From positions 1 to 36,000 of the IMG/VR virus record IMGVR_UViG_2534681759_000010: a stretch of DNA of 36,000 nt; one strand, 5' to 3'. This DNA comes from a virus. Taxonomy: Duplodnaviria; Heunggongvirae; Uroviricota; Caudoviricetes. Below the pieces are notes generated by a model. That model did no database searches. It had not been told where the DNA came from and saw nothing but the letters and a program-made list of their open reading frames with translations. Position 1 is the first letter of the stretch. Every line of letters starts with the position of its first letter. The position numbers were made by a program, and so were the translations under genes. Below, in pieces: positions 1-35,040 of the stretch.

Positions 1-351
1 ATGCGAGAGACAGTCGAAATTATGCGTTATCCCGTCACTCTTACACCCGCGCCGGAAGGCGGTTATATGGTTTCTTTTGTGGATATCCCTGAAGCGTTGA
101 CGCAGGGCGAAACTGTCGCTGAAGCGATGGAAGCGGCAAAAGATGCTTTACTGACCGCATTTGATTTTTATTTTGAAGATAACGAGCTAATCCCGTTACC
201 TTCGCCATTAAATAGTCATGATCACTTTATTGAAGTACCTTTGAGCGTCGCCTCTAAGGTATTGCTGTTAAATGCTTTTTTACAGTCAGAAATCACTCAG
301 CAAGAGTTAGCCAGGCGAATTGGCAAACCTAAATGTTGTAAACCCCAATAA
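1..351 (+). CDS. hicB: HicB-family antitoxin, C-terminally truncated: HicA-neutralising N-terminal fold retained, DNA-binding tail replaced by CCKPQ-stop
   Basis: Translation MRYPVTLTPAPEGGYMVSFVDIPEALTQGETVAEAMEAAKDALLTAFDFYFEDNELIP...QQELARRIGKPK matches my recollection of enterobacterial HicB over about 105 residues, then diverges at about nt 336. Not verified by search. Confidence 0.6.
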   Translation: MRETVEIMRYPVTLTPAPEGGYMVSFVDIPEALTQGETVAEAMEAAKDALLTAFDFYFEDNELIPLPSPLNSHDHFIEVPLSVASKVLLLNAFLQSEITQQELARRIGKPKCCKPQ

Positions 352-364
352 CTAAAATTTTTGC

Positions 365-396
365 AATAAAAAAGCCCCATCACAAGGACAGGGCTA
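365..396 (-). terminator. Weak rho-independent terminator for the minus-strand gene 415..720
   Basis: AGCCC...GGGCT stem with a large loop; the A-run on the + strand gives a U-run after the hairpin on the minus-strand transcript. Confidence 0.35.
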
Positions 397-414
397 TAGA
401 ATCAATCACTTACA

Positions 415-720
415 TCACTTAATGTCTTTCATTCTACGGATACGCGCGCTTGCTTCCGGTAGTTCATCCAGTGTTACGTGATAAGCAAGCATACAGACAG
501 GAGTCGGATCAAATCCCTCATGAGTATTGATCAGATGGCTATTCCCGCCTTTAAACTCATCCTGTCCATCCCATATAGCGTACACGTCATCTTCTGCTAC
601 ATAGATAATCAATCCAATAGGGGAGTTAGTAAGCTGGAAGATGCAGCCAGTAGAATCAATACGATGTTCCCGAACGTCATCAACAGTTTCAAAGTCAATC
701 TTAATATCTTTAGTCTTCAT
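415..720 (-). CDS. Hypothetical protein, 101 aa, immediately inside the candidate junction
   Basis: Intact ORF with a downstream hairpin plus U-run; no family recognised. Confidence 0.5.
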   Translation of the reverse strand: MKTKDIKIDFETVDDVREHRIDSTGCIFQLTNSPIGLIIYVAEDDVYAIWDGQDEFKGGNSHLINTHEGFDPTPVCMLAYHVTLDELPEASARIRRMKDIK

Positions 721-1019
721 GATTTGCCCTCGCGTGAAAAATATTTTCGATTATTTATAAAAAAGACTTGACAAAATCAAAAGGTACTGTTCCACGGGTG
801 AAATAAAGCGAGTTTTCGGCACCCCGGTTTTTGATGTGCGTGTGAGATTTCAAAACAGGTGCAGTGCAGCCCACCAGCGCGGTCGCTACGCGACTATTAA
901 CACCAGCCAATCCCTTTCCCTGCCTCGATCTTTCCCTTCGTTATAAAGCGTTTTAGGCGCTCTCCTGAATGCGCAGATCAGATAAATAATTTTACGCAAA
1001 TTTAATGGAGGATAACCGG

Positions 1020-1580
1020 ATGAAAGAAGAATTAACCCTTACAGAAATTTCCCGCTTATACGGCTATACAATCAACGCCGCTAAGAAATGGCAAGAACGA
1101 GGAATGCCATTTAATACCAATACACGACGCGTGCCAGCCAAAGAAGGAACAGAATGGGTCTTGAAGAACATCATTAATCCGCTCAAAGAAACTACTGTCA
1201 AAGAACAAATCGATGTAGAGAAATTACGCCGTGAGCGTGCTTTGGCAGATGCAGCCGAACGAGAGAACCAGGAAGCAATGAATCTCCTGATTCCCGTCGG
1301 TTATGTGGAGCAGGAGCTAGCGGAATACTGCGGGAAAGTGAAGCAGACTATTTTGCAGATCGCCACAATCGACGCTTTAGAAATTCTCGAATCTGCCACT
1401 GATCAGAAAACATTGAAGAATAAGCTAAGGGAGATCATCGAGCGTCGTTTAAATGAAGTAGGGGACTTGTTCGAAAATGCAGATTTGGGAGAAGACGAGG
1501 AAGAAGAATTACCATTAATGGATGAACCGGAAGAACAAGAACAAGAACCAGAAGAAGACGATGAATTTGATGTGTCTTAA
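1020..1580 (+). CDS. Terminase small subunit, lambda Nu1-like winged-HTH, with acidic C-terminal tail
   Basis: GGAGG 8 nt upstream of the internal ATG (ORF-track start 1005 + 15). LTLTEISRLYGYTINAAKKWQERGMP resembles Nu1 KKQLADIFGASIRTIQNWQEQGMPV; EKLRRERALADAAE resembles Nu1 ENEKLRREVEEL. Confidence 0.6.
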   Translation: MKEELTLTEISRLYGYTINAAKKWQERGMPFNTNTRRVPAKEGTEWVLKNIINPLKETTVKEQIDVEKLRRERALADAAERENQEAMNLLIPVGYVEQELAEYCGKVKQTILQIATIDALEILESATDQKTLKNKLREIIERRLNEVGDLFENADLGEDEEEELPLMDEPEEQEQEPEEDDEFDVS

Positions 1581-1674
1581 AACGCGTTATAAATAAATGT
1601 ATGAAGGGTGTTGAACGGGTCAACGCCTACGGGGGAGAACATCCCCCGCTTAACTTTTAAGAGGATATAAAACT

Positions 1675-1959
1675 ATGGCTACTTTTATTACCTATGCTGT
1701 CATCATTACTATTCTGGCTGCTATCTCTGCTTATAAACTCGGAACCGAACCGAAAGAACGAGGCGAATTATTCTTAGGTGCGTTTGTTGCATTTGCTAGC
1801 CTTGCGTTAATTGTCGAAGGAATTTCTTATATTGTTGGCCTAGTTAGTATGACACTTTTTAACTTCCATCCAACTATTGCTATGCATTTGATGCTGACCG
1901 TACTTTGGGTATATTGCTTAATCGAATTTTTAACGTTTGTTTTCAAACAGACTAAATAA
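1675..1959 (+). CDS. Small integral membrane protein, 94 aa, about 3 hydrophobic helices
   Basis: Strongly hydrophobic translation, followed by two hairpin terminators. Confidence 0.55.
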   Translation: MATFITYAVIITILAAISAYKLGTEPKERGELFLGAFVAFASLALIVEGISYIVGLVSMTLFNFHPTIAMHLMLTVLWVYCLIEFLTFVFKQTK

Positions 1960-2118
1960 TATTGTAATCTGCCATTTCTCCTTATGTGGTTTTAACAGGG
2001 AATTTTCGAAAGAGAGTTCCCGATTAAAAGCCATAAAACACATTCAGTACCGTGTTTTCATAGTCAGTGATCTATACAACATAAAAACATAACAAGTATA
2101 GATTGAGTATTAATCCTC

Positions 2119-2145
2119 CCGCCCCGAAGGGGGCGGTTATTTTTC
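2119..2145 (+). terminator. Rho-independent terminator
   Basis: CCGCCCC-GAAG-GGGGCGG hairpin followed by TTATTTTTC. Confidence 0.6.
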
Positions 2146-2221
2146 TGGCTTTACTAGATAATGTAGCATTATATTCATTATAACCTCATCTTTGTTGTGC
2201 AAACCTAACCTAAACTTACTA

Positions 2222-2247
2222 GGGACTCTTCGGAGTCCCTTTTTTTA
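2222..2247. terminator. Rho-independent terminator, possibly bidirectional
   Basis: GGGACTC-TTCG-GAGTCCC hairpin followed by TTTTTTT; abuts the stop codon of minus-strand gene 2245..3186. Confidence 0.5.
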
Positions 2248-3186
2248 TTGGCAGTAAGAAAAGTTAGTACCGTACATTTCATCATGAAGCATTGCAGCAT
2301 TGCGTTTCTGTTCTTCTTCCTCATCTTCTACATCACTAGAAAAATGAGATTTGCCCTTAAAAGAACGAAGTAATTGCAGTGCAGCCATCGGATCACGCAT
2401 CACATCGATTTTCACTTCTACTTCATCATTTGCGGCCTCATCAGCCGCGTTTTCAACTACTGCCACCGGAGCAACTTCTTTAGCTTTCAGTTCTTCAATC
2501 TCAGCTTTCTGTGCTTCGATAATCTGGTCTTTTTCTTCCAATGCAGCTTTCAGTTCTGCGATCTGTGCTTCCAGTGCAGCAAAGCGATCTTCAACAACCG
2601 GAGAAACAGCATTCACCTGTGCTTCCAGTTCCAGAAATGCTTCGCAAGATTCAATACGTTCTTTCTCTTCACCTTCATAAGCAACCAGTTCTACAACTTC
2701 TTTTTCGGTAGCGTGGCTGTTAAAGAAAACAGCAAAGTAAGGATTGCCGGATTTAGTGAAGTTCAGTTTAGCTTTTCCGGTAACTTCTTTACGACGACCG
2801 AAGGTGATCTGGCAATCAGCGGTATCCTGAAAATCCATGTTAGGAGCGGAAACGATAGCAGTATCACCAGCAATAACCAGGTGGAACAGTTCAGAAGAGT
2901 TCTTAACGGTAAAAGTAACGATGTGGTCTACTGCAACGTCTTTAGCAGGTTTAACGCGGTCGATTGCTTTACGAATGCCGTTAGGCAGTTTACCGTCAAC
3001 ACCAAAGCCAGCCGCGATCAGTGCTTCACGATGTGCTTTAAAGCCAGCGAAAGCGGATTTCTGCTGCGCAAAGGAAACATGAGCAACAACTTTCGGCTGA
3101 ATCTTCTTGTTTGCTTCGGTGCCAAATTTGATAACTGCTTTAGCGTTGGTTACTTCGTTAGTGAAAAAGTTAGCGGAAAATAACAT
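2245..3186 (-). CDS. Hypothetical protein, 313 aa, with central coiled coil (AALEAQIAELKAALEEKDQIIEAQKAEIEELKAKE) and acidic C-terminus
   Basis: Long intact ORF; the + strand ORFs across it are low-complexity shadows. No family assigned. Confidence 0.55.
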   Translation of the reverse strand: MLFSANFFTNEVTNAKAVIKFGTEANKKIQPKVVAHVSFAQQKSAFAGFKAHREALIAAGFGVDGKLPNGIRKAIDRVKPAKDVAVDHIVTFTVKNSSELFHLVIAGDTAIVSAPNMDFQDTADCQITFGRRKEVTGKAKLNFTKSGNPYFAVFFNSHATEKEVVELVAYEGEEKERIESCEAFLELEAQVNAVSPVVEDRFAALEAQIAELKAALEEKDQIIEAQKAEIEELKAKEVAPVAVVENAADEAANDEVEVKIDVMRDPMAALQLLRSFKGKSHFSSDVEDEEEEQKRNAAMLHDEMYGTNFSYCQ

Positions 3187-3300
3187 TATAAATACTCCTG
3201 TGGAAAGTTAGTTTTAATTGTTCATTTCAAGCCTCCCTTGTTGCAGCAAAGGAGGCTTTTTCTTTTTTAAAGCCATCATATAATTCTCAGTCAAAGTTGA

Positions 3301-3483
3301 TTACCAAACGGTAGCTTCAATCTTCACTTTAATGTCATATCGTTTTAGCAGTTTATGAAAGGTTGATTTATCGATGCCCTCATTTTTAAACCACTCTTCA
3401 ATTCTCACACCCGGCGTTAACTCAAAGTAGCGTTTAGCCATTTCTAAGATGATTTCGCGAGTGAACTTAACAGGTCGTGCCAT
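3301..3483 (-). CDS. Small HTH-type DNA-binding protein, 60 aa; regulator or excisionase/RDF-like candidate
   Basis: Compact basic ORF; co-oriented with 2245..3186 and downstream of the leftward promoter at about 3905-3933. Confidence 0.45.
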   Translation of the reverse strand: MARPVKFTREIILEMAKRYFELTPGVRIEEWFKNEGIDKSTFHKLLKRYDIKVKIEATVW

Positions 3484-3904
3484 CTCGAATCCTCCTACAA
3501 TGTGGATTAATGATTTCTTAAAAAAGAGCGTTAACCGCTCACTATTATTTATATGGGGATTGTATTTTATTTTTCAACCCCTCACATTTATCTCTTATAT
3601 ATGTATTTACAACAGAGATATGTTAAAATGTTATTCAGATGTTATCAGACGTGTTAAATGTGTTAAACCACAGCACGAATTGCTAAAGCGAAGAACACGA
3701 TTTAACCAAATTGATGTATATTCAATCAATTTAGAAAAAGGCATAGCACTTTTTGCTAAAGCGGTGAGCATTAATTGAGCTATGAATTGTAAAGATTTGT
3801 TACAAGATTTTCTCTCAGATCCAAATCTTCACAGGCATATAACAATTTAACACGGTGATAACAAACGGAAGGAAAATCGGTAAATTTTCACTTTCAATAC
3901 AAAT

Positions 3905-3933
3905 ATTATACCACATTTTTCTCCAATTGTCAA
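3905..3933 (-). promoter_or_regulatory. Leftward sigma70 promoter: TTGACA, 17-nt spacer, TATAAT on the minus strand
   Basis: + strand ATTATA near 3905-3910 and TTGTCAA near 3927-3933 are the reverse complements of TATAAT and TTGACAA with a 17-nt spacer. Confidence 0.45.
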
Positions 3934-4000
3934 GTGTAGCACCGATCCTACACAGTGTCAACAAAGGATTTTCAAACCTACACTAGCCCTACACTATGAA

Positions 4001-4195
4001 AATTGCCCCTGAATTTTTGCCCCTGAACCAAAATCCCCTAGATTCCACATCCAATTTTTGCCCCTGAAACCCACTATTTTTGCCCCTGAAATTCTGGGAA
4101 ACAGTGATTTTGCCCCTCATTTTTGCCCCTGAAATGCCAATAATTGCCCCTGAAAATCTAATTTTTGCCCCTGAAATTTGCCCCCCCGAAAAGGA
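4001..4195. repeat. Array of about 8-9 direct copies of (T)TTTGCCCCTGAA(A) with irregular spacing
   Basis: Copies read at approximately 4001, 4013, 4054, 4076, 4107 (degenerate), 4121, 4142, 4160 and 4176 (degenerate). The same core forms the palindromic stem of the terminator at about 6494-6522. Confidence 0.65.
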
Positions 4196-4352
4196 TTGGT
4201 GAGAAAAACTCTTTATAAAACATTAACTTAGTGAGGGGCAAAAGCGGGGGATCGGGCGTGCATAGATATTATATAACACATTCGCTACGCTCATGTGTAA
4301 AACCAAAAACAACAAATAACCAAAAAGATATTAGGAGGGCGTAGCCCGACTG

Positions 4353-4650
4353 CGCGAAGCGCCAACCAATTACTTCTAGTAACAACTAATTTAAACTAGA
4401 TGATCTTAGAAGGAATTAACTAGTTTGCTCGCTCGCTTCGCTCACTCCCAAACGTCTGCGACGCCACTGCGTGGCATCGAGAATCACTTTTGAAAGGATT
4501 TTCTTAGAAAGGGATTTAATACCAGATGATAACTGATTCTAGTAAACGAACGAAGTGAGTAACAATCACTTTCTAGAAAGGTATTGGTTATCCCTTCGGG
4601 ATTGCAACCTTCGGTTGCCAAATTGCTTCCTGATTATTATTATTTCTCCA
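4353..4650 (+). ncRNA. Candidate structured non-coding RNA or leader: two tandem UUCG-tetraloop hairpins, then a U-rich tract
   Basis: No ORF; repeated CTAGAAAGG-ATT motifs; ATCCC-TTCG-GGGAT and GCAAC-CTTCG-GTTGC hairpins near 4590-4620 followed by a T-rich run; bracketed by an 18/20 direct repeat. Strand and ends uncertain. Confidence 0.25.
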
Positions 4651-4824
4651 AAAGAAAGATTCTTATATTCTAAAGATACTTCTTCGTTTTGATGATGGTT
4701 TAATCAAATTATGAAGGAGGGCTTTGCCCGACTGAATACAATCACCTTTCATAATAACAAGAATTTTCTCTTTATAAATAATAGTGAACTTACTTGATTC
4801 ACTTTCTTTTAGAGGATTTCCACT

Positions 4825-5292
4825 ATGAACCATAAACTGACTACCACTACTCCTTTTATCCTTCTGGGTCTGGATGCAGATAGCTTTCACAATGACAAGT
4901 TAATGAAGATGTTCCGTGAACGTGGTTATAACATCCTTTACAATACCGATGAATCCCATTTCTCTAGTGCATGGTATGTTTTCGGAAGAAATAAACGTCC
5001 TACCATCGTTGTTAACTGCTTCACCGATGAAGACCGCCTGAAATACCAGAACATTCCAGCAATCATTGTTCGTGATGACCTGCCTTTCGAAGTCCGTGAT
5101 TATGACATTGATTTAGGTAGCTTCGTTACTGTCTATGAACTGGATGAAGCCATGTTTAACTACGGCAAAGAAACCGCTCAGGAAGCCCCAGAACACGATG
5201 AACAAGACGAAGATGACGACGACTACACACCAATCTGTTTCTCTTCTCACGGTGGCTTCTACGGTTACGATGAAGGCTTAGATATGCTGTAA
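4825..5292 (+). CDS. Hypothetical acidic protein, 155 aa (C-terminal DEQDEDDDDY)
   Basis: GAGGA RBS about 8 nt upstream; first rightward gene after the non-coding block. Confidence 0.55.
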   Translation: MNHKLTTTTPFILLGLDADSFHNDKLMKMFRERGYNILYNTDESHFSSAWYVFGRNKRPTIVVNCFTDEDRLKYQNIPAIIVRDDLPFEVRDYDIDLGSFVTVYELDEAMFNYGKETAQEAPEHDEQDEDDDDYTPICFSSHGGFYGYDEGLDML

Positions 5293-5314
5293 TTTAGGTC
5301 AACCCTTTGGCGTC

Positions 5315-5356
5315 TTGTCAAGGGGTATTGACAAAAATTTCTGACTTTTTTATGAT
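5315..5356 (+). promoter_or_regulatory. Rightward sigma70 promoter (TTGACA, 17-nt spacer, TATGAT) overlapped by a perfect palindrome TTGTCAA-ggggta-TTGACAA
   Basis: Read directly from sequence; a second TTGACA follows about 35 bp downstream. Confidence 0.5.
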
Positions 5357-5414
5357 TATCGCACTTGACAACTTTGAACCTATTTGACCTAGATTTGTAA
5401 AGAGGATGTTAATT

Positions 5415-5561
5415 ATGAACACTACTAAGAAAATTGATGGACGTAAAAACCCGAACCGCAAACCGTGGACCCCAAACCTGAATTTCTCAATGGTTGACTT
5501 CCATGAACGCCAGCGTCGCATTCAAGAAGAAATTGATCGCGCGATTGCTGAATCTAAATGA
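5415..5561 (+). CDS. Small basic protein, 48 aa (MNTTKKIDGRKNPNRKPWTPNLNFSMVDFHERQRRIQEEIDRAIAESK)
   Basis: Below the ORF-track size cut-off; GAGG RBS upstream; immediately downstream of the promoter. Confidence 0.35.
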   Translation: MNTTKKIDGRKNPNRKPWTPNLNFSMVDFHERQRRIQEEIDRAIAESK

Positions 5562-5662
5562 GATAAAAACTTCTTATAAATAAAATTGTTCCGCGCGCCG
5601 TTGGCGTGTGGACAGTTAAAACAGGAGAATCAATCACTAAACCGTTTAAGGGGAATTTAATT

Positions 5663-6487
5663 ATGAATACTGTTACTGCTATGAATACTGCTAAAACTGC
5701 TTCCGTGTCTCTGGTTGTTGATAACACCAAACCGCTGACCATGTCTTCTCGTCAGATCGCTGAATTTACCGATAAGAAGCACAGCAATGTAATGCGCGAT
5801 ATTCGCGAAATGTACGAATCTTTAGGTATTATCGATCAGCTCAAAACTGAATTTGTCGAGAGAATCAATAACTTAGGATATGCTGTTAAAGAACCAGTAT
5901 ATCACTTAGACGAAGAAATGACGCTGACTCTTGTCACTGGTTACGATGTTAAGCGTCGAATGGTTGTTATTCAGGAATGGAAGCGACTGAAAGAAGAAAA
6001 TGAAAAACTGCGTCAGGAACGTTTAGCTGCTAACCCGTATGCAGACTTTGAAGAAACAGACTGGATCGAACTGGCATTAAAGAAAACTCGCGAAAATAAA
6101 AAGCTGATTGAACTTCATGTTCGCAAATCCGTAGATAGCCATTCAATGACCCGTCTGTTAGGCGCTAAAAAGGGCGCTACGAAGGTTAAAGAAGCACTGA
6201 CGGCCTTGCGTACTGCTGGCTACATTGAGCGCGTCTACGATGAAAATAACAAGCCGTGTGGGTATGTTGCTAATGACTCTTCTCTGTCTTTCTGCCGCAT
6301 GAATGCTCACTACCAACTTGAGTTTACTGTTGATGTTCTTCCGGTGCTGGTTGAATTGGGCGTTTTGGAAGAAGAACAGAAAGCAACTCTTAAACTACCG
6401 CAGCCAAATAACACTATTCTGATTCAAAACAAAGCGGCTGAACGTCTCCGCCAGAATGTTGGATCACTGGAACACTTCGGACTGTAA
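5663..6487 (+). CDS. Rha-family phage regulatory protein
   Basis: N-terminal LTMSSRQIAEFTDKKHSNVMRDIREM fits the Rha signature; start taken at the internal ATG with an AGGGG RBS (track start 5606 + 57). Confidence 0.65.
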   Translation: MNTVTAMNTAKTASVSLVVDNTKPLTMSSRQIAEFTDKKHSNVMRDIREMYESLGIIDQLKTEFVERINNLGYAVKEPVYHLDEEMTLTLVTGYDVKRRMVVIQEWKRLKEENEKLRQERLAANPYADFEETDWIELALKKTRENKKLIELHVRKSVDSHSMTRLLGAKKGATKVKEALTALRTAGYIERVYDENNKPCGYVANDSSLSFCRMNAHYQLEFTVDVLPVLVELGVLEEEQKATLKLPQPNNTILIQNKAAERLRQNVGSLEHFGL

Positions 6488-6493
6488 TAATTT

Positions 6494-6522
6494 TTGCCCC
6501 TGAAATTCAGGGGCTTTTTTTG
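6494..6522 (+). terminator. Strong rho-independent terminator
   Basis: GCCCCTGA-AAT-TCAGGGGC hairpin followed by TTTTTTT. Confidence 0.7.
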
Positions 6523-6532
6523 TTTTCTATAG

Positions 6533-6566
6533 GTATAAAAAAAGGCCAACCCCGAAGGATTGGCCT
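6533..6566 (-). terminator. Terminator for minus-strand gene 6573..6803
   Basis: GGCCAA...TTGGCC hairpin with a CCCGAAGG centre; U-run on the minus strand. Confidence 0.45.
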
Positions 6567-6572
6567 AGAGAA

Positions 6573-6803
6573 TCAAATTCCTGTTGCTTCTACCATTTCA
6601 CCATCAACCTGAACAAAGAATTTCAAATCAACTTTATGGAGTGATTTGTAGAATTGAGCAATTGAAATACCATGTTCACTCAATACTTGTTCTTTTTCGG
6701 CTTTACCTTTCGGTGCTTGATAGTACGCTTTTACAATCGCTGCCAGTTGTTCACGATCAAAACGGCAAGGACGACCGCGAGTAGCTTTAGTAGTCATAGT
6801 CAT
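6573..6803 (-). CDS. Stand-alone Hin/resolvase-type HTH DNA-binding protein, 76 aa
   Basis: TRGRPCRFDREQLAAIVKAYYQ...HGISIAQFYKSL follows the GRP-x-HTH pattern of Hin-family C-terminal domains; no catalytic domain. Confidence 0.5.
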   Translation of the reverse strand: MTMTTKATRGRPCRFDREQLAAIVKAYYQAPKGKAEKEQVLSEHGISIAQFYKSLHKVDLKFFVQVDGEMVEATGI

Positions 6804-6831
6804 TTCTCCAAATTAAAGTGAATGTTCACCT

Positions 6832-7437
6832 TTATTTAGAGGACTTACATTTTATCGGAAAAAGTTCTCCATCGTCAATACTCATAAAGAACTCTGCCTT
6901 AATCCCGTACTTCTTCAACCGTGAATAGTATGTCCCCCGACTTATATCAACCTTGCGAAGCACTTCAAAGAACCCTTTAGGATCGTTGTAATAGTGGCTA
7001 TAACGCACGTTAGCGAGTTCAACGAATAGTTCCCTTGTATCACCATAGCCTTTCTTGAAAGCCTCGTTACGATAGCGTGTAATGGCATGATTCAATCTCT
7101 TCTGTTTCAACACTTCCCTGATCGGTGTCCACTGCAACCGATAGATAGGACCGTCATCAATGCGATAATAACGCTTGATATCAAAATCAAACCAATCTCG
7201 GACTCTCCGAAACTCTGTATGTGATGTGCGATGCTTCTTAAAGAAGTTATGGATATCTGTATACCCATGATCGCGATACAACTCGATTAAAATTTGCTTC
7301 GCTTCCTCACGACTAAAGCCGGATGTTGTGTAATCAGTCTTCTTGTGATGGTGCTTAACTGGCAAACGATATTCATGATCGGTACAACAAGACAAGGCTA
7401 ATTCTACTTCATCTCTTTGTTGCTGATTAATTAGCAT
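6832..7437 (-). CDS. Hypothetical basic protein, 201 aa, with C-terminal HTH ([15 protein letters not shown])
   Basis: Intact ORF co-oriented with 6573..6803; HTH-like C-terminus; N-terminal domain unassigned. Confidence 0.5.
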
Positions 7438-7524
7438 ACAACCCCCTTAAATCTTAATACCCGTATTTATCAAAATATCAACAATTTAATAAATACCTTC
7501 ATATTTCGTAATGAGGGTAATTAC

Positions 7525-9429
7525 ATGAAACTAATTTCTAATAAGGCCAAATTAAAAAAGATTCTCAGAAATGCAGCCAAATATATTACGCCACCGCCTA
7601 AACTCCTTCCTTCTGAATGGTGCGAAGCGAATATGGTGCTGGTAGATGGTCCTCAAGCGGGGGATAAAGTTAAATTGCTGTCATTCCAGAAAGGCATGAT
7701 TGATGCTCCTTTCCTTGAGAATAAGAAAAAGTATGTACTGATGACCAGTGCGCAGATCGGAAAAACTACCATCCTAAACGGTATCCTGTTTAACCAGATG
7801 GCTAACGATCCATGCAATATGATTATCGGACAATCAACCGCTAAAGAAATGTCTCAATATCTCGCGGGTAAGATCCGACCGTCTATCGAAGCATGTGATG
7901 CATTGAAAGACGTGGTTACAGACAAGAATGATCGTAATGCGGTTAACAACAATAACCAACTCCAGTTAAAAACGAATCACTTCCTGTACATGGTATCGCT
8001 TACCAGTCCATCAACCCTACGCGGTAAGACCGCAAAGGTTGGATTGCTTGACGAAATCGATGCTGCCACAGCCTCAGAAGAAGGTGATCCGGTGGCACTG
8101 GCTGCTAACCGTTTAACTACCTTTGGCGATGAAGGTCGATTAGTCGTATCCAGTACCCCGACCAGTAAGCTGGGAAGCATTAACCAGCAATGGTTATCAA
8201 ACGATATGCGTATGTTTTTTGTTCCGTGTCCTCATTGCGGGGAACACCAGGTGATCGAGTGGGAAAACGTTCAATTTGAATGGCGTAACATTGATGGTAA
8301 GAACTTACCCGATCCTGATACCGCTCGTTATATTTGCCCCCACTGTAAGAACGCATGGACCGAAGGGGAACGAATCAGGGCAGTAGCACAAGGCGAGTGG
8401 AGAGCAACCCGTGAAAGTGAGGTAGCAGGATTCTGGATTAGCCGTCTGTATTCACCTTTCAGCACGATTCGCGCTTGTGTGGTTGATTTTAGTCATGCGT
8501 GGCAATCCTTTGATTTACAATCATTTTATAACACCGTGTTAGGCAAGGTATACGACGATCAGGACACGGCAGTAGAAGCAAATGAACTGGAACAACTCAA
8601 AACAGATGTTTCTATCGAGAATATCCCTGATGACGTGATTTTCTTGTGTGCGGGTACTGACCAGCAATTAGATCGCGCAGAAACTACGATCATGGGCGTG
8701 GCAAAGGATAAAATTTATATTCTGGATCACCGCAGCTTTTACGATCATAACTGTGAACGATATGAATCCCCTGTATGGGATAGATTAATCAACTTCCATA
8801 AAACCAAATTTACTACTGTATCGGGTGATCGTGTTCCTATGCTCGCCAGCTTCCTTGATACATCGAACGGTCGATTCACTCAAGCTGGATACCGTATTTG
8901 CGGCAAGTGGAAGAACTTACACGCTATCAAAGGTAGTTCTGCTGGTAACGCTCCGATCATTCCGGTTAAACCTACCCGCACAGGTGGTCATGAATTGCTT
9001 ATGTTGGGTGTTAACGTGGGTAAAACTGCATTTCGTGAAATGTTGGCTAGGAACCTGAAAGATAATCCTCATATTGGCTTAGAAATATCAGACACCGTTC
9101 CTGATGATTATCTCGATCAGCTTTTAAGTGAATCTGTCAAGCGTACTACTACTGGCGTGAGATGGGTAAAGAACCCAGGCGTTAGGAACGAGGCGCTCGA
9201 CTGCGCCGTGTATGCTACAGCGGCTTCTCGCTACGTCCTTTCAAAAATGTCATGGGATAAACTCATTGCAATGAAAGACAGCTTAAACCGTGTTGTCGAA
9301 GAACCCGTAGAAGCTCCTAAATCGCAATCTGACGAGCAAATCGAAGAAAATAAGCCAATCACACGACCACAACGTAAAAACATCGCCAGACGTCCAAATA
9401 GAGGCCGTAGCTGGGTAACATCGTTCTAA
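7525..9429 (+). CDS. Terminase large subunit, lambda GpA family
   Basis: PCPHCGEHQ vs lambda ACPHCGEEQ; YSPFST vs YSPFTT; [12 protein letters not shown] vs AGIDSQLDRYEM; [15 protein letters not shown] vs RRNEALDCFVYALAA. Confidence 0.85.
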
Positions 9430-9501: not shown

Positions 9502-9996
9502 ATGAGTTTAGAACTAATTCCCTTAGTAATTCGTAAAGGCGAAAAAATCACGCTGGCGAATGAAGAGGGTGTAACAATTCAGGTAGGTAATAGCAAAGAC
9601 ATTGTCTATCAGGTCGATGATGCACCGGAAAATCACGAGATTAAAACGTTAGACTTTCCAGAAGGGAAGATGACCATTGTTATTACTCTTGATGAAGAAC
9701 TGGTATCCATGCAGGAATTAACCGTATTGCCAGTATTCGCCAAACAATCCAAAAAAGAATATCTGCGGGAAACTATCACCTTAATCGAGCAAGTTATTTT
9801 CGCCCGTTTATATGGGGACGAAGCCGCATTATCTGCAATGACAATAAAAGGGAACTCATTCGCTTATGAGTCATTGGGTGTTCTCCAGCAATTGAAGACT
9901 GATTATGAACGTCAGTTATCTAAATTAATTCAAGCCGAACGACGTAAACAGGGAATTAGCCCGATTAAAAATATCAAATTACGTCTTACGCGATAA
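9502..9996 (+). CDS. Hypothetical head protein, 164 aa, at the lambda W position
   Basis: Position between terminase and portal; weak C-terminal resemblance to gpW. Confidence 0.35.
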   Translation: MSLELIPLVIRKGEKITLANEEGVTIQVGNSKDIVYQVDDAPENHEIKTLDFPEGKMTIVITLDEELVSMQELTVLPVFAKQSKKEYLRETITLIEQVIFARLYGDEAALSAMTIKGNSFAYESLGVLQQLKTDYERQLSKLIQAERRKQGISPIKNIKLRLTR

Positions 9997-10006
9997 GGGG
10001 TAAATC

Positions 10007-11518
10007 ATGTTTAATCTTTTTCGACGCAAAAAGGCGGTAGAAACTCCAGTTAAAACTAATCACCGCCAGCAACAACCAAAAATTTTCATCGACAAATCTA
10101 TAGAAAGATACCAGAAATCTCTGGCGACTCGTAGTTTAGGACTGGTTGGTGATCGTATTGATGGATCACTTCAACAAGACACCATTACAGGAACCTTCAA
10201 TAAGGCTCTCAAATCGAACGGTAAGCGCCTTTATGATCAGGGTCGTACTCTGGCCTTAAACACTTCCGTTGGCAGTCGCTACACGCAATACATCACCGAT
10301 ATGGTGGTCGGTACTGGACTAGATCCGAAGCCGTCAATCGTTAAATCAAATGGCAAACTTGATAGCGCACTGAATAAGCAGATCGAGAATGCTTTCTGGA
10401 AGTGGGCGCAGAACGCTAAACGCTTCTCTCGTAACGGTCGCTTTAACTTCCGTGAACTGTTGGTAATGGCTGAACGTGAGCGCGTTATGGGTGGTGAATG
10501 CTTTATCGTTTTAACCAAAGAAAACAATAAGTTAAATGTTTCTATCCTGTCTGCTGATAAATGCGACTGGTCGCTAAACCGTGAAGTAAGCAAAGACCGT
10601 GCGATATATCAAGGTGTGGAGTATGACGTAGAGACGATGAAGCCCGTAGCATACTGGTTTCGTAAAATCAATCTACTGACTCAGACTTACACAGGTGATA
10701 ACTATCGTGTCGAGGCTTCGCAAGTATGTCATTATTATCAACCACTTGCGGCTGAATCTCTGCGTGGTGTGACTGACTTCCTGCCAGTGATTAAGGATAT
10801 CGCACATCAAGACGCATTCCGCGAAGCTGTATTGGTCCAGAAACGAATTTCAGCTAGTAGCATGGCGTTCATCGAGCGTCCGAAAGATTCTGGTGACGAT
10901 TTTGATACTGGTGAAGATGATGAACAATATCAAGCGCCGGAAGTTATTCACGATTTCGCGCCAGGTACTATTCAGGAATTACCGGAAGGGGCAACGATCA
11001 AGAGTATTCAATCCACGCAAAGCGGCGATGATTTCAATTCCTTTAACGCTGGTATGTTCACGAGTATAGCGATGGGTCTTGGCGTGTTCAATCAGGGCTT
11101 AACTGGCGATACTAGCCAAATAAATTACAGCGCCGCACGCTACGGCGAATTACTTCAAAGAACGCGCGTTAAAGCACTGCAAAACAAATTGATTGAAACA
11201 GTGGTATTGCCAATTTTCGAAGCATATCTACGCCATTATTCCGCGCGTGGTATTGTTCCGATTCGTATTACTGCAATTCCGCATATTATCGACAACACTA
11301 CTATTATCCGTCCGCGTTTTGAATCCGTCGATCCTATTAAAGACGTAAACGCCGAGATTGCTTTAATTGATAAAGGACTTAAATCACGTACTGCCGTTAT
11401 ATTAGAACGTGGTGATGATCCTGAAAAAGTATTCTCAGAGATTCAAGCCGAAAAGAGCGCACTAAATATTATCGTTAATGGCGAGGGTGAAGAAAAAAAT
11501 TCCCCAGCCGATCCCTAA
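10007..11518 (+). CDS. Portal protein, lambda gpB type
   Basis: 503 aa directly after the terminase; AMGLGVFNQGLTGDTSQINYSAARYG resembles lambda B AAGLGVSYEQLSRNYAQMSYSTARAS. Confidence 0.8.
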   Translation: MFNLFRRKKAVETPVKTNHRQQQPKIFIDKSIERYQKSLATRSLGLVGDRIDGSLQQDTITGTFNKALKSNGKRLYDQGRTLALNTSVGSRYTQYITDMVVGTGLDPKPSIVKSNGKLDSALNKQIENAFWKWAQNAKRFSRNGRFNFRELLVMAERERVMGGECFIVLTKENNKLNVSILSADKCDWSLNREVSKDRAIYQGVEYDVETMKPVAYWFRKINLLTQTYTGDNYRVEASQVCHYYQPLAAESLRGVTDFLPVIKDIAHQDAFREAVLVQKRISASSMAFIERPKDSGDDFDTGEDDEQYQAPEVIHDFAPGTIQELPEGATIKSIQSTQSGDDFNSFNAGMFTSIAMGLGVFNQGLTGDTSQINYSAARYGELLQRTRVKALQNKLIETVVLPIFEAYLRHYSARGIVPIRITAIPHIIDNTTIIRPRFESVDPIKDVNAEIALIDKGLKSRTAVILERGDDPEKVFSEIQAEKSALNIIVNGEGEEKNSPADP

Positions 11519-31130: not shown

Positions 31131-31712
31131 TTAGAATATGCTGGCGACGTTAGCTATATTTCTGACCATTTTTTCATTATAAACAAACGTTTCTGTAGCA
31201 CCTTCTTTAATATCAAAATCACCTTTTACTAGGTTTTTCTTGATAAACAATTCTGCCGCGTATGCGTCTTTTTCGTCTTGAAATTCGAAAGCCTCGATGA
31301 TATCAAATTTCATCTTATTCTGGCATCTTAGCTTATGTTTTCTCTTCAACACATTGTGACTTACTCCAACCTTACCCACATCACCACACCGCATAACATA
31401 TAATACTGGTTGCCCATTTTTATATTTGTTGTCATATTTGCTACGATTACACGGGCACACAGTAGGATTATGTAAGAATTGTTTTGCTGTTATATCTCTG
31501 ATTCTTGCGCAGCTTTCACACTCTAGCACAATACGGCTATTGATTGATTTATACTCACCTTTGAATCCGTGGTAAATCAAGGGTAAACCCTCGTTTTCAA
31601 TACGGGTCACGATCCTTGCTTCCATATCAATTGGATGTGATGGCGCTTTGCCATTTTTGGTGCGGATAAAATTGAACGGGATATCACATGCTTTGCGCAC
31701 ATCATTCATCAT
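31131..31712 (-). CDS. Zinc-finger plus T5orf172 (GIY-YIG superfamily) domain protein; homing-endonuclease-like
   Basis: Cys cluster CESCARIRDITAKQFLHNPTVCPC; LYVMRCGDVGKVGVSHNVLKR ... ETF fits the T5orf172 pattern. Start set at the internal ATG with a GAGG RBS (track start 31724 is a GTG). Confidence 0.55.
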   Translation of the reverse strand: MMNDVRKACDIPFNFIRTKNGKAPSHPIDMEARIVTRIENEGLPLIYHGFKGEYKSINSRIVLECESCARIRDITAKQFLHNPTVCPCNRSKYDNKYKNGQPVLYVMRCGDVGKVGVSHNVLKRKHKLRCQNKMKFDIIEAFEFQDEKDAYAAELFIKKNLVKGDFDIKEGATETFVYNEKMVRNIANVASIF

Positions 31713-31752
31713 AAAAAACCTCACTTAATTTATCTTATAGGCATTACCTTTA

Positions 31753-32205
31753 ATGTTGATGATCGAGTTCGTAGAAACCGAATTAACTAAACTGGCTTCC
31801 GAAATGGAAGAAGAAACTCCGGCAGAAGGAACCAGTATTAACGATCTTATTCTGGCAGCAGATACCGCAGATGATAAAGTAGTATTCGACGAAGTTGATC
31901 CGTCTCTGGTTGAAGCAATGAAAGAACCTGAGATCGTCATTGAAGAAACAAAAGAAGAATCTCCAGCAGTTGAACCAGTGGTCGAAGAAGTTAAGTCAGA
32001 TGTTGAAGAAGCACCGGAAGTTAAAGTGAAATCTCCGGTAGCAAACATTTTCTCTGACGAAGCAGAACATCGTTCCCCAGCACATGACACTGATTCATTT
32101 TGCGATCTTACTGGCTTCCGTCCGACCATTTGCTTGATCGGTGGCGGTCGTGGTTACTACTCCTGCCCGTGGTCTTCAACCATTACAACAAATTTTTCTC
32201 AATAA
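31753..32205 (+). CDS. Highly acidic protein, 150 aa (E/D/V/P-rich, VEE repeats); DNA-mimic or anti-restriction candidate
   Basis: Frame uses codons I recall as preferred in enterobacteria (GAA, CCG, CTG, GCA); the overlapping minus-strand ORF 31725..32129 is a Ser/Thr-rich antisense shadow. Confidence 0.5.
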   Translation: MLMIEFVETELTKLASEMEEETPAEGTSINDLILAADTADDKVVFDEVDPSLVEAMKEPEIVIEETKEESPAVEPVVEEVKSDVEEAPEVKVKSPVANIFSDEAEHRSPAHDTDSFCDLTGFRPTICLIGGGRGYYSCPWSSTITTNFSQ

Positions 32206-32240
32206 ATAGTAGTGAACTTATTATTTTCGAGGACACTAAT

Positions 32241-33239
32241 ATGAATACTACTTTAGCAAAGGATATCGAATTTACCGCAAAAAGCAAACGTGCGACCCCT
32301 CCGGTCGAATATGAAACCAGAATCATTAAAGTTTGTCAAGCGCATGGATGGTTATACAGTGGTTTTGTGCTTCCTGTAAAGAAACCATTCCAGAACACCA
32401 AAGTTTGCATAGAAGTTAACGGAAAGGTTAAAACGCCATGTATTAGTCATGTTCTAACTGGTCAGTTTACTGGCAAAGATAGAGTATCACCGCCTAAGAA
32501 GAAGTTTAGATTTACCGAAGAAGAACACTTAGAAAACGCTCGCAAGTTCTACAAGCCGATAGGGTGGGATGTGTTAGGTCTGGCTGAACCTTATCAGGGT
32601 GTTGACACTAAACTAATTCTTCGTTGTAAGTGCCACGGAAAGATTCACAAGAAAGGTGATTTACACAATAACCGCAGACAAGGCGGGTTAACATGCCCTT
32701 TGGTTAGGGGTGTACTTAAATCAATTCAGAATGGTAGAAAACAGGTTATCAGAAACAAGTTTGCACAGCGCCCTATGCACTTTTATCTAATTCGTGTTGG
32801 CGAGAAGTTTTTCAAATATGGAATTACCACTCGCAAAGATCCGATGCAACGGGTAAGAGAACACCAGAAGCACACCAGCGAGAAAATCACCTTTGAATGC
32901 TCACATTTGTTTAACATTGGATGGAAAGCTGGTGATTTAGAAATGGGGATTAAAAAGAATATTCAGGGCAAGAAAATCCCACGTAAGGTAATGAATAGCG
33001 GATTCACAGAAACGCTACCGATTAGCAAGCTGAAAGATGTTAAATCATTCATCAATGAATACATCCACACCAACCCATCTAAGCCAATGTATTTTGATGA
33101 TACCAACGCAATCAATCTGAACAACTACATTAGTGATGAAGACATAGAACGAGATTTATCGCAGTGGATGAATGCACCGTTAGCTGATTTAACACCGGAA
33201 AACTTAGAACTCGATTTAAGCCCTTTAGAGGCTCTCTAA
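32241..33239 (+). CDS. Second zinc-finger plus T5orf172 domain protein, divergent paralog of 31131..31712
   Basis: GAGG RBS before the internal ATG (track start 32100 + 141); Cys/His cluster RCKCHGKIHKKGDLH...LTCPL; HFYLIRVGEKFFKYGITTRKDPMQRVREH fits the T5orf172 core. Confidence 0.55.
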   Translation: MNTTLAKDIEFTAKSKRATPPVEYETRIIKVCQAHGWLYSGFVLPVKKPFQNTKVCIEVNGKVKTPCISHVLTGQFTGKDRVSPPKKKFRFTEEEHLENARKFYKPIGWDVLGLAEPYQGVDTKLILRCKCHGKIHKKGDLHNNRRQGGLTCPLVRGVLKSIQNGRKQVIRNKFAQRPMHFYLIRVGEKFFKYGITTRKDPMQRVREHQKHTSEKITFECSHLFNIGWKAGDLEMGIKKNIQGKKIPRKVMNSGFTETLPISKLKDVKSFINEYIHTNPSKPMYFDDTNAINLNNYISDEDIERDLSQWMNAPLADLTPENLELDLSPLEAL

Positions 33240-33310: not shown

Positions 33311-34990
33311 TTAAATTCCAAATTCCTGTAATGGACCTGGTATTTCCTCTTCTGGTTTCCAGTTCTTATCTGTCAGCATGTCTAAACATGGATGCAAAAC
33401 AAGCCCGTTACTTTCCAGAATCTGTCTATCATTGATAGTTTTCAAATCAACGAAGATCCGGCCTTTCCTCGGTCCTCTTGAATTTTCTATTACAACTCTC
33501 TGGGTCTTGCCATCGATGTATTCCAGTACAAACAAGTTTTTGTACTTGTCAATCCTGCTACACCCGATCCGTTTTAGAGCTTGCTTAATCTTAAACCGGA
33601 CCTTAATGCGATCCTCGTTGTAAACATCTTCTATATCAAATTCTGCGAGCTTCTCCCAGCCTTGAGAGTCAACAGAATACATTTCCTCTTCTGCCATCTT
33701 AATTTGATTGTAGAGTGTTTCACGCTCGCTATTGAGGGTAGTAATCTGATCGGCTAGCTCCTTCGTTGCTCCTGTCATAGCAGAAAGGGTAATCAGGTTA
33801 TCAATCTTGCGTGATATTTCATCAATCTGTACTTTCAAAGCCGGAACCGGATTAGCCTTATCCTCAGCAATCCAGATTTTATCAGCCAGCAATTGCAATA
33901 CAGCTTTCTCTAATTGATCACCTCGAAAACTCCAGTTTGTATGCACACATGCAATACGACTAGAGCGCATTGCATCGCATGAATAACGATATTGGTTAGG
34001 ACGTTTGTTAGTTCCTTTCACCTTAACCATAGCGGAACCGCAATGTTCACATTTCAATAGACCAACACCACTAAGCAAGGGAATAGGTTTAACTTCTTCC
34101 TTGTCTCCATAGTTACATGCTCTAACACCAATGCTTTTCTTAAGGTGATAAAACTCAGCGTCATCTAGCACACGAGGATAATAATCCTTTAACTCATACT
34201 TAACGCCATCTACAGAGATTTCCTTGATACCAATCAAAGCGCGGGTATGGAACAACCTTTCAATCATTGCCCGTGACCAGTTTGAATGCCTCTTGTGACT
34301 TGCGGCTGGTGGTGGTGTGTATGTCGCGTTAAGGTGATCCAGTATCTCGGCGGTTGACCGTCCATTCCTGCGTAATTCCACAACTTCCTGAACAATAGGG
34401 AAGAAGACCGGATGAGGAAGCACATAACCAGATGTGGTATCAGTCCACCACATATTCTTTCCAATTTCCTCGATTGCAACAGCCGGATTTTGTGGATTTT
34501 CTTGATGAGCTTTAATCTTAATCAATGCGCTTGAGTTAGTACGATTGCGCTTAGTCTGACTTTCCTCGTTAGCTCTCGCAAACAACATGACACTCAACAG
34601 CAAATCAATAGGATTGGCATTAACCGATTCCTTGCTATAGACCTTACCATCCATGCCAGTTACGATAGTTATTCCCCTACGGATAATCGAGAGAAATAGC
34701 TCTTGTGCTTCAATGATGGATTGGCGAGAGATACGGTCTAAGTTTTCCACAACCAGCCAGCTACCAACCGGAACGGATCGACCAATCTCATCCAGAAAGC
34801 GAGATAGTGCACCTGTTCTACTGTTAGCCCCTTTGAATGCAGATACACCAAAATCCTGATAGGAAGTAACCAGTTCAAGGTCATATTTTGCGGCTATCTC
34901 TGCGGCTGTTCTCTTTTGGCGTTCATAAGAACTACCATCTGCTTGCTTCATGGAAGAGAAGCGAATATACGAATACAGTTTAGTTTTCAT
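33311..34990 (-). CDS. Large serine recombinase (serine integrase or invertase-like)
   Basis: N-terminal resolvase catalytic domain (MKTKLYSYIRFSSMKQADGSSYERQ); long C-terminal extension with Cys cluster (CEHCGS...C...C) and coiled coil, typical of large serine recombinases. Start at the internal ATG (track start is a TTG). Confidence 0.8.
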   Translation of the reverse strand: MKTKLYSYIRFSSMKQADGSSYERQKRTAAEIAAKYDLELVTSYQDFGVSAFKGANSRTGALSRFLDEIGRSVPVGSWLVVENLDRISRQSIIEAQELFLSIIRRGITIVTGMDGKVYSKESVNANPIDLLLSVMLFARANEESQTKRNRTNSSALIKIKAHQENPQNPAVAIEEIGKNMWWTDTTSGYVLPHPVFFPIVQEVVELRRNGRSTAEILDHLNATYTPPPAASHKRHSNWSRAMIERLFHTRALIGIKEISVDGVKYELKDYYPRVLDDAEFYHLKKSIGVRACNYGDKEEVKPIPLLSGVGLLKCEHCGSAMVKVKGTNKRPNQYRYSCDAMRSSRIACVHTNWSFRGDQLEKAVLQLLADKIWIAEDKANPVPALKVQIDEISRKIDNLITLSAMTGATKELADQITTLNSERETLYNQIKMAEEEMYSVDSQGWEKLAEFDIEDVYNEDRIKVRFKIKQALKRIGCSRIDKYKNLFVLEYIDGKTQRVVIENSRGPRKGRIFVDLKTINDRQILESNGLVLHPCLDMLTDKNWKPEEEIPGPLQEFGI

Positions 34991-34999
34991 ACCATTTCC

Positions 35000-35040
35000 A
35001 AACAAAAACGCCCCTACCGCGTATTATAACGATAGGGGCA
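35000..35040 (-). terminator. Hairpin terminator immediately upstream of the recombinase start
   Basis: GCCCCTA...TAGGGGC stem with a 16-nt loop containing TATTATAAC, followed on the minus strand by GTTTTTGTTT. Confidence 0.4.

Follow-up and report, generated by a model that had tools for sequence, protein, structure and literature searches.

In the window analysed here, a 36,000-nucleotide stretch of viral (Caudoviricetes) DNA (positions 1 to 36,000 of IMG/VR virus record IMGVR_UViG_2534681759_000010) that is almost exactly one ~35.7 kb prophage of E. coli inserted inside hicB, a gene for a Nu1-type small terminase subunit (terS, 1020..1580, + strand) lies well apart from the gene for the GpA-type large subunit (terL, 7525..9429, + strand), with 5,944 bp between the terS stop and the terL start. 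We think it likely that the 1020–1580 product is the genuine Nu1-type small terminase subunit of this phage, and that the separation of the two genes is a conserved and inherited order. Comparison of gene orders indicates that the split is an old, conserved arrangement of one enterobacterial phage clade and not a recent insertion.

The small and large terminase subunits

The open reading frame (ORF) containing terS spans 1005–1580. All homologues begin MKEE, and the ATG at 1020 has a GGAGGA ribosome-binding site in front of it; we therefore take ATG 1020 as the start, as had been noted in the original prediction, giving a protein of 186 amino acids (aa). TerS matches PHROG 57, 'terminase small subunit', with E=1.7e-15 over residues 2–179 and profile positions 5–196 of 199, and thus over its full length; lambda Nu1 also belongs to PHROG 57 (E=1.3e-76), as do the TerS proteins of phages Persinger, ECO1230-10 and FoX1. 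An end-to-end alignment was obtained between the TerS family profile and Persinger TerS (37.6 bits, profile positions 8–162 of 184), and the profile scores 25.9, 25.5 and 17.7 bits for ECO1230-10, lambda Nu1 and FoX1, respectively. From these matches to small terminases, the homology reaches the C-terminal two thirds of the protein, beyond a generic DNA-binding fold. Pfam Phage_Nu1 is matched by 11 of 20 family members at E<=1 (best 3.7e-5), and by the Pfam standard the window TerS is, as judged from its sequence, a divergent Nu1 member. RefSeq calls most copies of this protein 'hypothetical'.

An AlphaFold2 model of TerS, with a mean predicted local distance difference test (pLDDT) score of 72.5, consists of an N-terminal winged helix-turn-helix (HTH), three long helices and a disordered acidic tail. 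The winged HTH is predicted as strand-helix-helix-strand over residues 4–39 (pLDDT about 78–86) and the helices at residues 40–89, 93–125 and 129–152, followed by the tail, which ends in EFDVS and is conserved in the family as (D/E)FD(V/L)S. The top Foldseek match is a small-terminase N-terminal domain, 6hn7_B (probability 0.98, template modelling (TM) score 0.63 normalised to the target), a chain named 'Terminase small subunit' in the entry from Mol Cell 2019 'Hijacking the Hijackers'; lower in the list come winged HTH proteins of the MerR, BldC and Xis types. A profile search of Protein Data Bank (PDB) sequences gave weak matches to three small-terminase DNA-binding domains, 6hn7_B, 1j9i (lambda Nu1) and 7lw0. 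PHROG 66 and Pfam HTH_17/MerR gave no match to the window TerS at E<=0.01, and HTH_17 was touched by two of 20 TerS family members with E about 0.13.

TerL, unambiguously of the GpA type, with ATPase and endonuclease domains and a basic N-terminal segment, matches Pfam GpA_ATPase (1.8e-55, 188.7 bits against a cut-off of 25.6), GpA_nuclease (7.7e-46, 157.1 bits against a cut-off of 22.5) and PHROG 15 (E=2.6e-139). It is followed by a head-tail joining gene (9502..9996, + strand, PHROG 5774), a lambda-type portal gene (10007..11518, + strand, PHROG 21) and a protease-capsid fusion, and because the joining and portal genes come next, the head module starts at terL. The full-length PHROG 57 match, the GpA domains and the 5,944 bp gap together bear out the original prediction of a Nu1-like small terminase about 6 kb from a GpA-like large terminase. 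The two genes co-occur in all complete elements, and Pfam and PHROGs gave no other small-terminase candidate in the window. The leftward genes beside terL were considered as a hidden TerS and rejected: they run on the opposite strand and match no family, nor can they be an essential subunit, because they are missing in Edwardsiella and partly in Salmonella.

Gene order in relatives and outgroups

Among 13 IMG/VR loci with both genes, the terS stop lies 5.7–8.5 kb before the terL start. The gap is 6.1–7.4 kb in an E. coli-type metagenome contig (L036), in locus L032, and in Salmonella, Edwardsiella and Providencia relatives; by relative, it is 7.4 kb in a contig with a 58% identical TerS, 6.3–6.4 kb in Salmonella, 6.7 kb in Edwardsiella tarda and 6.8 kb in Providencia. 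In Atlantibacter, with a TerL 49% identical to that of the window, the gap is about 4.4–4.7 kb, and in a 30 kb phage related to the record for phage DCP80 (the DCP80-like phage) it is about 5.3 kb. All relatives examined have the split, at identities as low as 32% for TerS and 43% for TerL, with an overall range of 4.4–8.5 kb. The intervals of the Escherichia, Salmonella, Edwardsiella and Providencia elements have a common backbone of variable cargo, a leftward unit with a ~59–60-aa gene first, an ORF-free gap, rightward early genes with a Rha gene, and then terL. Leftward genes, an ORF-free gap and rightward genes before terL are common to Atlantibacter and the DCP80-like phage, and the examined part of the latter shows no Rha gene.

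The outgroups were drawn from one genome per bacterial species (GTDB representatives), which were scanned with TerL to yield 56 GpA loci from many phyla, and the ORFs of these loci were searched with a broad Nu1-family profile; a scan of the species-representative genomes with the TerS alignment found nothing. A Nu1-like ORF is present in 51 of the 56 loci, and 48 of these abut or overlap terL, while two lie 0.6 and 1.6 kb upstream. The genes are split at a single one of the 51 loci, that of the close relative Atlantibacter. Since 48 of 51 outgroup pairs, as well as those of ECO1230-10 and Persinger, are adjacent and the relatives are all split, we take adjacency to be ancestral and the split to be derived and clade-specific.

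Synteny comparison with related phages and prophages, to which the original prediction had pointed, thus finds the same split arrangement, which by gene order is a conserved lineage trait. The suggestion that a module had been inserted between the terminase genes stands in a deep evolutionary sense, as the split is derived, but not as an insertion into this prophage, since relatives have the same layout.

A separate observation concerns alleles of terL. An allele with 59% identity is present in four loci (L023, L025, L026 and L035) in which the flanking genes are about 88–97% identical, and in the two E. coli loci among these with the N-terminus read (L025 and L026), exactly the first 16 terL codons keep their identity. 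This edge could be either a recombination joint just inside terL or the limit of a constrained N-terminal peptide.

The upstream block, the interval and the element

A conserved non-coding block of ~250 bp (762..1019, + strand) travels with terS and is a probable cohesive-end site (cos) region. Conservation starts at AAAAAGACTTGACA (762) and runs to the terS start, whatever gene is located upstream, and the central element of the block has two versions, which co-vary with two TerS HTH types (Y-T-x-N-A-A-K-K-W and Y-S-L-P-A-V-x-K-W). The block is collinear with the lysis–terS intergenic regions of ECO1230-10 and Persinger, with CTTGACA, GGTACTTCCG, a GC-rich stretch and TGCGTG, and the joined ends of the linear FoX1 record fall inside the equivalent block. 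We would accordingly place cos cleavage at about 800–840, ~190–220 bp before the terS ATG, a spacing much like that of lambda, with putative TerS-binding sites between this position and the ATG. Contig ends were rejected as cos ends: a 35.5 kb Logan contig and another start ~388 bp upstream of terS, in what is host flank at a different integration site. The ends of the DCP80 record are ambiguous: on the circular map, the two ends of its small-phage part coincide within ~50 bp, at a spot that varies by indels in another contig.

The terS gene contains recombination joints, and in one relative (L039) TerS is 59% identical in residues 1–90 and 100% identical in residues 91–155. The divergent TerS C-terminal type is paired with a divergent TerL N-terminus; across the clade the TerL N-termini have a common basic segment with variants, and where the 59% identical terL allele occurs with the common terS, the first 16 TerL residues are identical. 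These patterns, which are not decisive, would fit a contact of the lambda kind, made by the C-terminus of TerS with the N-terminus of TerL.

The interval between the terminase genes begins with a terminator-like hairpin after terS (1630..1648, + strand), one of three such hairpins around a gene for a 94-aa hydrophobic, membrane-type accessory protein (1675..1959, + strand); the others are at 2119–2136 and 2221–2240, and the gene is kept in some relatives and missing in others. A leftward early unit follows, with a 60-aa HTH protein, a candidate regulator, as its first gene (3301..3483, - strand; HTH_Tnp_1 E=0.0033, below the cut-off), and a 313-aa coiled-coil protein with marginal family matches only, variable among relatives, as its second (2245..3186, - strand). 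Homologues of the 60-aa protein were found by tblastn in E. coli/IMG-VR loci, L032 and Salmonella loci, the only ones compared, and gene calling puts a leftward 59–60-aa gene at the corresponding position in L032, Salmonella, Edwardsiella and Providencia, and a 55-aa ORF there in Atlantibacter. No homologue was found at that position in one relative (L020), and the DCP80-like phage has nothing obviously equivalent.

To the right of the 60-aa gene is a 1.3 kb ORF-free control region (3484..4824) with promoters and iterons, which is probably an operator or origin region. It contains two consensus leftward promoters (3933–3905, matching at 12 of 12 positions, and 3961–3933, both - strand) and an array of about nine copies of TTGCCCCTGAAA with 21–22 bp spacing (4003–4185), together with an inverted copy at 4234–4250. 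Rightward promoter-like sites are located at 4615–4643 in this region and, beyond it, at 5328–5356 (both + strand). An ORF-free gap of 1.2–1.6 kb is present at the same place in the relatives examined (L004–L047), including the DCP80-like phage and Atlantibacter, and its repeat arrays are strain-specific, with nine copies of TTGCCCCTGAAA in the window and AAACCTACACT or CCCCCGGATTCCAC elsewhere; the repeat type does not track the tabulated alleles of TerS, the 60-aa HTH protein, the 155-aa protein described below or Rha. The iteron array was considered as a set of TerS sites of the cosB kind and rejected, as TerS proteins that are 98–100% identical occur with repeats TTGCCCCTGAA or AAACCTACACT, and two Salmonella prophages with identical TerS have differing repeats. 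Rfam gave no known RNA family above threshold in 1–8000.

Beyond the control region are a gene for a 155-aa early protein with an acidic C-terminus (4825..5292, + strand) and a gene for a Rha-family protein, either a regulator or anti-repressor-like (5663..6487, + strand, with the ORF open from 5606 and a likely start at 5663). Among the loci compared by tblastn, the 155-aa protein has homologues in E. coli/IMG-VR loci and, at 35–39% identity, in L032 and Salmonella; the Rha protein matches Pfam Phage_pRha (3.5e-12) and PHROG anti-repressor families. One extra iteron copy forms the Rha terminator (6496–6514; also delimited as 6490–6514). Two leftward genes then precede terL, one for a 76-aa paralogue of the 60-aa HTH protein (6573..6803, - strand; terminator at 6566–6543, - strand), to which the 60-aa query cross-matches in L020, and one for a 201-aa protein with no family that is divergent from terL (6832..7437, - strand) and missing in Edwardsiella and some Salmonella relatives. 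On visual inspection, two similar C-terminal-type modules seem to be present in the 201-aa protein. From their sequences the 60-aa, 76-aa and 201-aa proteins look like a small phage-specific DNA-binding family reused across the early region.

The contents listed for this interval in the original prediction are thereby recovered for the membrane protein, terminators, leftward operon, promoters, repeats and Rha, while the HTH label is weak for the last two genes (HTH_Tnp_1 E=0.13 for the 76-aa protein and no match for the 201-aa protein). Overall, terminator-like sites are above the shuffled expectation (15 against 6.1), and promoter-like sites are not (14 against 17.5). No other regulatory, replication or early module was recognised elsewhere in the 35.7 kb element, and we regard the interval as the phage's own early and regulatory region; no insertion sequence (IS) or integrase boundaries flank it. 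A replication initiator, helicase or primase, CI/Cro-type repressor and excision factor were likewise not recognised in the element, and the early proteins of 60, 155, 51, 76, 201 and 313 aa have no family.

At the left end of the window is the 5' part of host hicB (1..351, + strand; Pfam HicB_lk_antitox 5.6e-8), interrupted by the prophage. E. coli UTME-9 (NZ_CP157110) carries a 92% identical copy, an element of ~35.8 kb with matching gene order and hicB fragments on either side, such that hicB is cut at both ends. The crossover of the left attachment site (attL) would lie near CCCCAATAAC, at about 342–351, and in L036, a relative at another chromosomal site, the junction has only the CCCCAATAAC core in common. 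A large serine recombinase near the far end of the prophage (560 aa in the UTME-9 element; 33311..35005, - strand, in the window; Pfam Resolvase, Recombinase and Zn_ribbon_recom, PHROG 95) is the integrase. In the circular phage the attachment site, attP, lies just upstream of the terS block, 70–480 bp before it; terS itself is ~670 bp from attL in the window and 70–120 bp in some relatives. The G+C content is ~42% over the whole window, which has no tRNA gene, and the INPHARED collection has no phage that is similar at the DNA level. The element is integrated at hicB, at ycdX and at other places in the chromosome, and 63 of 5,426 complete E. coli genomes carry the block with terS; the several integration sites and the 63 carriers argue for an active phage.

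Between attL and the terS block is a 101-aa cargo gene (415..720, - strand) with no family match that is variable among relatives, in which its place is taken by LprI-family, CapR-domain or reverse-transcriptase-TIR genes, or by nothing. Cargo hot spots flank terS on both sides (415–720 and 1675–3186 in the window, 99–1295 in L039, 5500–7131 in L043 and 10652–11554 in L045), and the cargo of relatives includes a CapR/T5orf172-type nuclease, LprI-family genes, a reverse-transcriptase-TIR gene in Edwardsiella and AbiTii in Providencia, which suggests that the cargo around terS forms defence or moron islands. PADLOC and NCBIfam made no credible assignment for the accessory genes of the window, and its cargo genes had no PADLOC match. 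Separately, two genes similar to PHROG 681 'endonuclease' or CapR-T5orf172, of 197 aa (- strand) and 379 aa (+ strand), are located at 31131–33239, between the lysis genes and the integrase.

Proposed explanation, rivals and known systems

We propose that terS and its ~250 bp upstream block, probably cos, constitute a 'site plus DNA-binding domain' cassette beside attP/attL, and that terL heads the structural operon 5.9 kb downstream, with the phage's own early region in between. The ancestor of the clade, arising from phages with adjacent terS and terL, would have gained the early region between the two genes, and the descendants examined keep that order. By analogy with lambda, the winged HTH of TerS would bind sites in the upstream block, TerS would oligomerise through its long helices, and its C-terminal part (the helical domain, the acidic EFDVS tail, or both) would recruit TerL at the basic N-terminus; TerL would then cut cos, and packaging would run to the right, taking in terS first and then the early region, terL and the late genes. 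The basis for this is homology, predicted fold, synteny, conservation and the lack of an alternative candidate, and we infer the position of cos, the TerS–TerL contact and the timing of expression.

Several points weigh against this explanation. The Pfam Phage_Nu1 (PF07471) score of the window TerS is 15.3 bits against a gathering cut-off of 30 and covers the HTH part only, and BLASTP to lambda Nu1 aligns the HTH alone, with 9 of 27 residues identical. The co-variation of TerS and TerL comes from few independent lineages, and the basic motif is in all TerL N-termini. For the placement of cos we depend on the collinear blocks of relatives and on the ends of one linear record as deposited. The upstream regions of terS and terL have no motif or promoter in common, and no + strand sigma-70-like promoter was found upstream of terS, where there is a TTGACA motif without a matching -10. 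The DCP80-like phage has two small ORFs directly upstream of terL, one of which overlaps the terL start. A literature search turned up no paper describing this lineage or its packaging, nor anything relevant on the prophage family, on DCP80 or on split Nu1/GpA genes.

One alternative is that the Nu1-like protein has been recruited elsewhere, as a transcription regulator or as an excision directionality factor for the serine integrase, and that packaging uses an unrecognised small subunit or none. A monocistronic terS near attL and far from terL is what such a role might look like, MerR, BldC and Xis proteins among the Foldseek matches have the same winged HTH fold, relatives give weak matches to PHROG 66 'excisionase and transcriptional regulator', and the serine recombinase has no identified excision factor. 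The homology to small terminases is nonetheless full length and not confined to the HTH, the best structural and PDB-sequence matches are small-terminase DNA-binding domains, and the window TerS, at 186 aa with TerS-like C-terminal two thirds, has no PHROG 66 match at E<=0.01. Moreover, the DCP80-like phage keeps a homologue in the same relative position, after its lysis genes, and the ~16 kb surveyed on either side of this homologue yielded no integrase call; Pfam and PHROGs reveal no alternative small-terminase candidate in the window. We consider recruitment very unlikely, and the original prediction's option of a recruited Nu1-like protein with the true small subunit unrecognised is disfavoured by the full-length homology, the co-occurrence with terL and the lack of another candidate.

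The remaining alternatives deal with the history of the locus. That a foreign regulatory or accessory module recently split an adjacent pair, in this prophage or its immediate ancestors, would agree with the variable cargo represented by the membrane protein and the 313-aa protein and with adjacency being the norm elsewhere; it is made extremely improbable by the recurrence of the interval backbone in Escherichia, Salmonella, Edwardsiella and Providencia, and partly in Atlantibacter and the DCP80-like phage, by the absence of any other recognisable early region in the element and by the interval's lack of IS or integrase boundaries. Least probable of all, and hardly to be credited, is that terS is the leftover of a different, decayed element next door and that the prophage is defective. 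The position of terS at the extreme edge of the element, its truncation in one relative (L008) and, in Providencia, the upstream lysis genes of what may be another prophage could be read in this way, but the host junction in the split hicB is outside terS, which places terS inside the element, and terS moves with the element to different sites and co-occurs with terL in all complete copies. A genuine small subunit in an inherited, split order is the reading that we favour.

Whether the arrangement serves a function is a further matter, and that the cos–terS cassette was uncoupled from the late operon and parked beside attP for a functional reason seems to us very unlikely. One possibility would be that the Nu1-like winged HTH protein doubles as an excision directionality factor or switch for the serine integrase, coupling excision to commitment to packaging; no excision factor was identified, and attP is only 70–480 bp upstream of the block. 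Another possibility is that separate regulation lets the prophage express TerS alone against other cos phages or satellites.

Annotators and prophage finders seek the small terminase beside the large one, a rule that fails in this lineage; adjacency to terL is a matter of context, not of the molecule. The elements provide a naturally occurring example of a lambda-type cassette for packaging specificity, made up of the site and the DNA-binding domain, that lies physically, and probably also in its transcription, apart from the motor subunit and recombines as a module inside terS. This could be of use in studying the control of terminase subunit stoichiometry and timing and in predicting virion DNA ends. 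If cos is beside attP, the maps of prophage and virion would be nearly collinear, which bears on the prediction of mispackaged host DNA. This is an organisational variant of a well-known system, a peculiarity of gene order with no new mechanism, and its interest is modest.

The system resembles lambda Nu1 and gpA in its PHROG 57 small subunit with an N-terminal winged HTH, in the same Pfam large-subunit domains, in a non-coding block of ~200–250 bp directly upstream of terS, and in a connector and then a portal gene after terL. In lambda, however, Nu1 (191–736) overlaps A (711–2636), whereas in the window 5.9 kb separate the two genes and terS seems to be transcribed as a unit of its own. The window TerS also differs in its long acidic tail ending in EFDVS, and the integrase is a serine recombinase, with attP beside the terS block.

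After DCP80, the nearest TerL proteins in the phage collection searched (about 29–32% identity) are those of Jilinvirus (ECO1230-10, ep3), Harrisonburgvirus (Persinger) and Foxunavirus (FoX1), which are similar to the window in full-length TerS homology with an acidic C-terminus and in the order TerL, a joining protein of ~165–180 aa, portal and fused protease-capsid. They differ in that terS overlaps terL in ECO1230-10 and Persinger and is 0.6–0.8 kb upstream of it in FoX1, and in that terS comes directly after the lysis cassette, whereas the window has the integrase and attP between lysis and terS, and its early region between terS and terL.

Closest in the phage database is the DCP80-like ~30 kb phage (the first ~30 kb of PQ671644, and contigs L040 and L041), with TerL at 43.5% and TerS at 32.6% identity. 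As in the window, the genes are split: between terS and terL lie 5.3 kb, which contain early genes in leftward orientation and an ORF-free gap of 1.4 kb. The circular order is terL, heads, tails, endolysin, terS, leftward small genes, gap, two small ORFs and terL. The differences are that terS directly follows the endolysin gene, that two small ORFs precede terL, and that the parts examined show no gene for an integrase, for Rha or for the 60-aa HTH protein. The split thus extends to a distant and apparently non-integrating phage. As to the record itself, PQ671644 ('Escherichia phage DCP80'; L027 and L028) is 141 kb long and is filed as a T4-like Gaprivervirus; its first ~30 kb are a small lambda-head-type phage that also occurs as separate ~30 kb metagenome contigs (L040–L042), followed by T4-like genes (motA, ndd), and the record has the look of a chimeric assembly or of a mixed lysate.

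The terminases of P2 and 186 (gpM small, gpP large) belong to families unrelated to those of the window, and the P2 genes are separated by scaffold and capsid genes and are on opposite strands, rather than being divided by an early region. These are nonetheless cos phages with non-adjacent terminase genes, and they indicate that non-adjacency is compatible with normal packaging.

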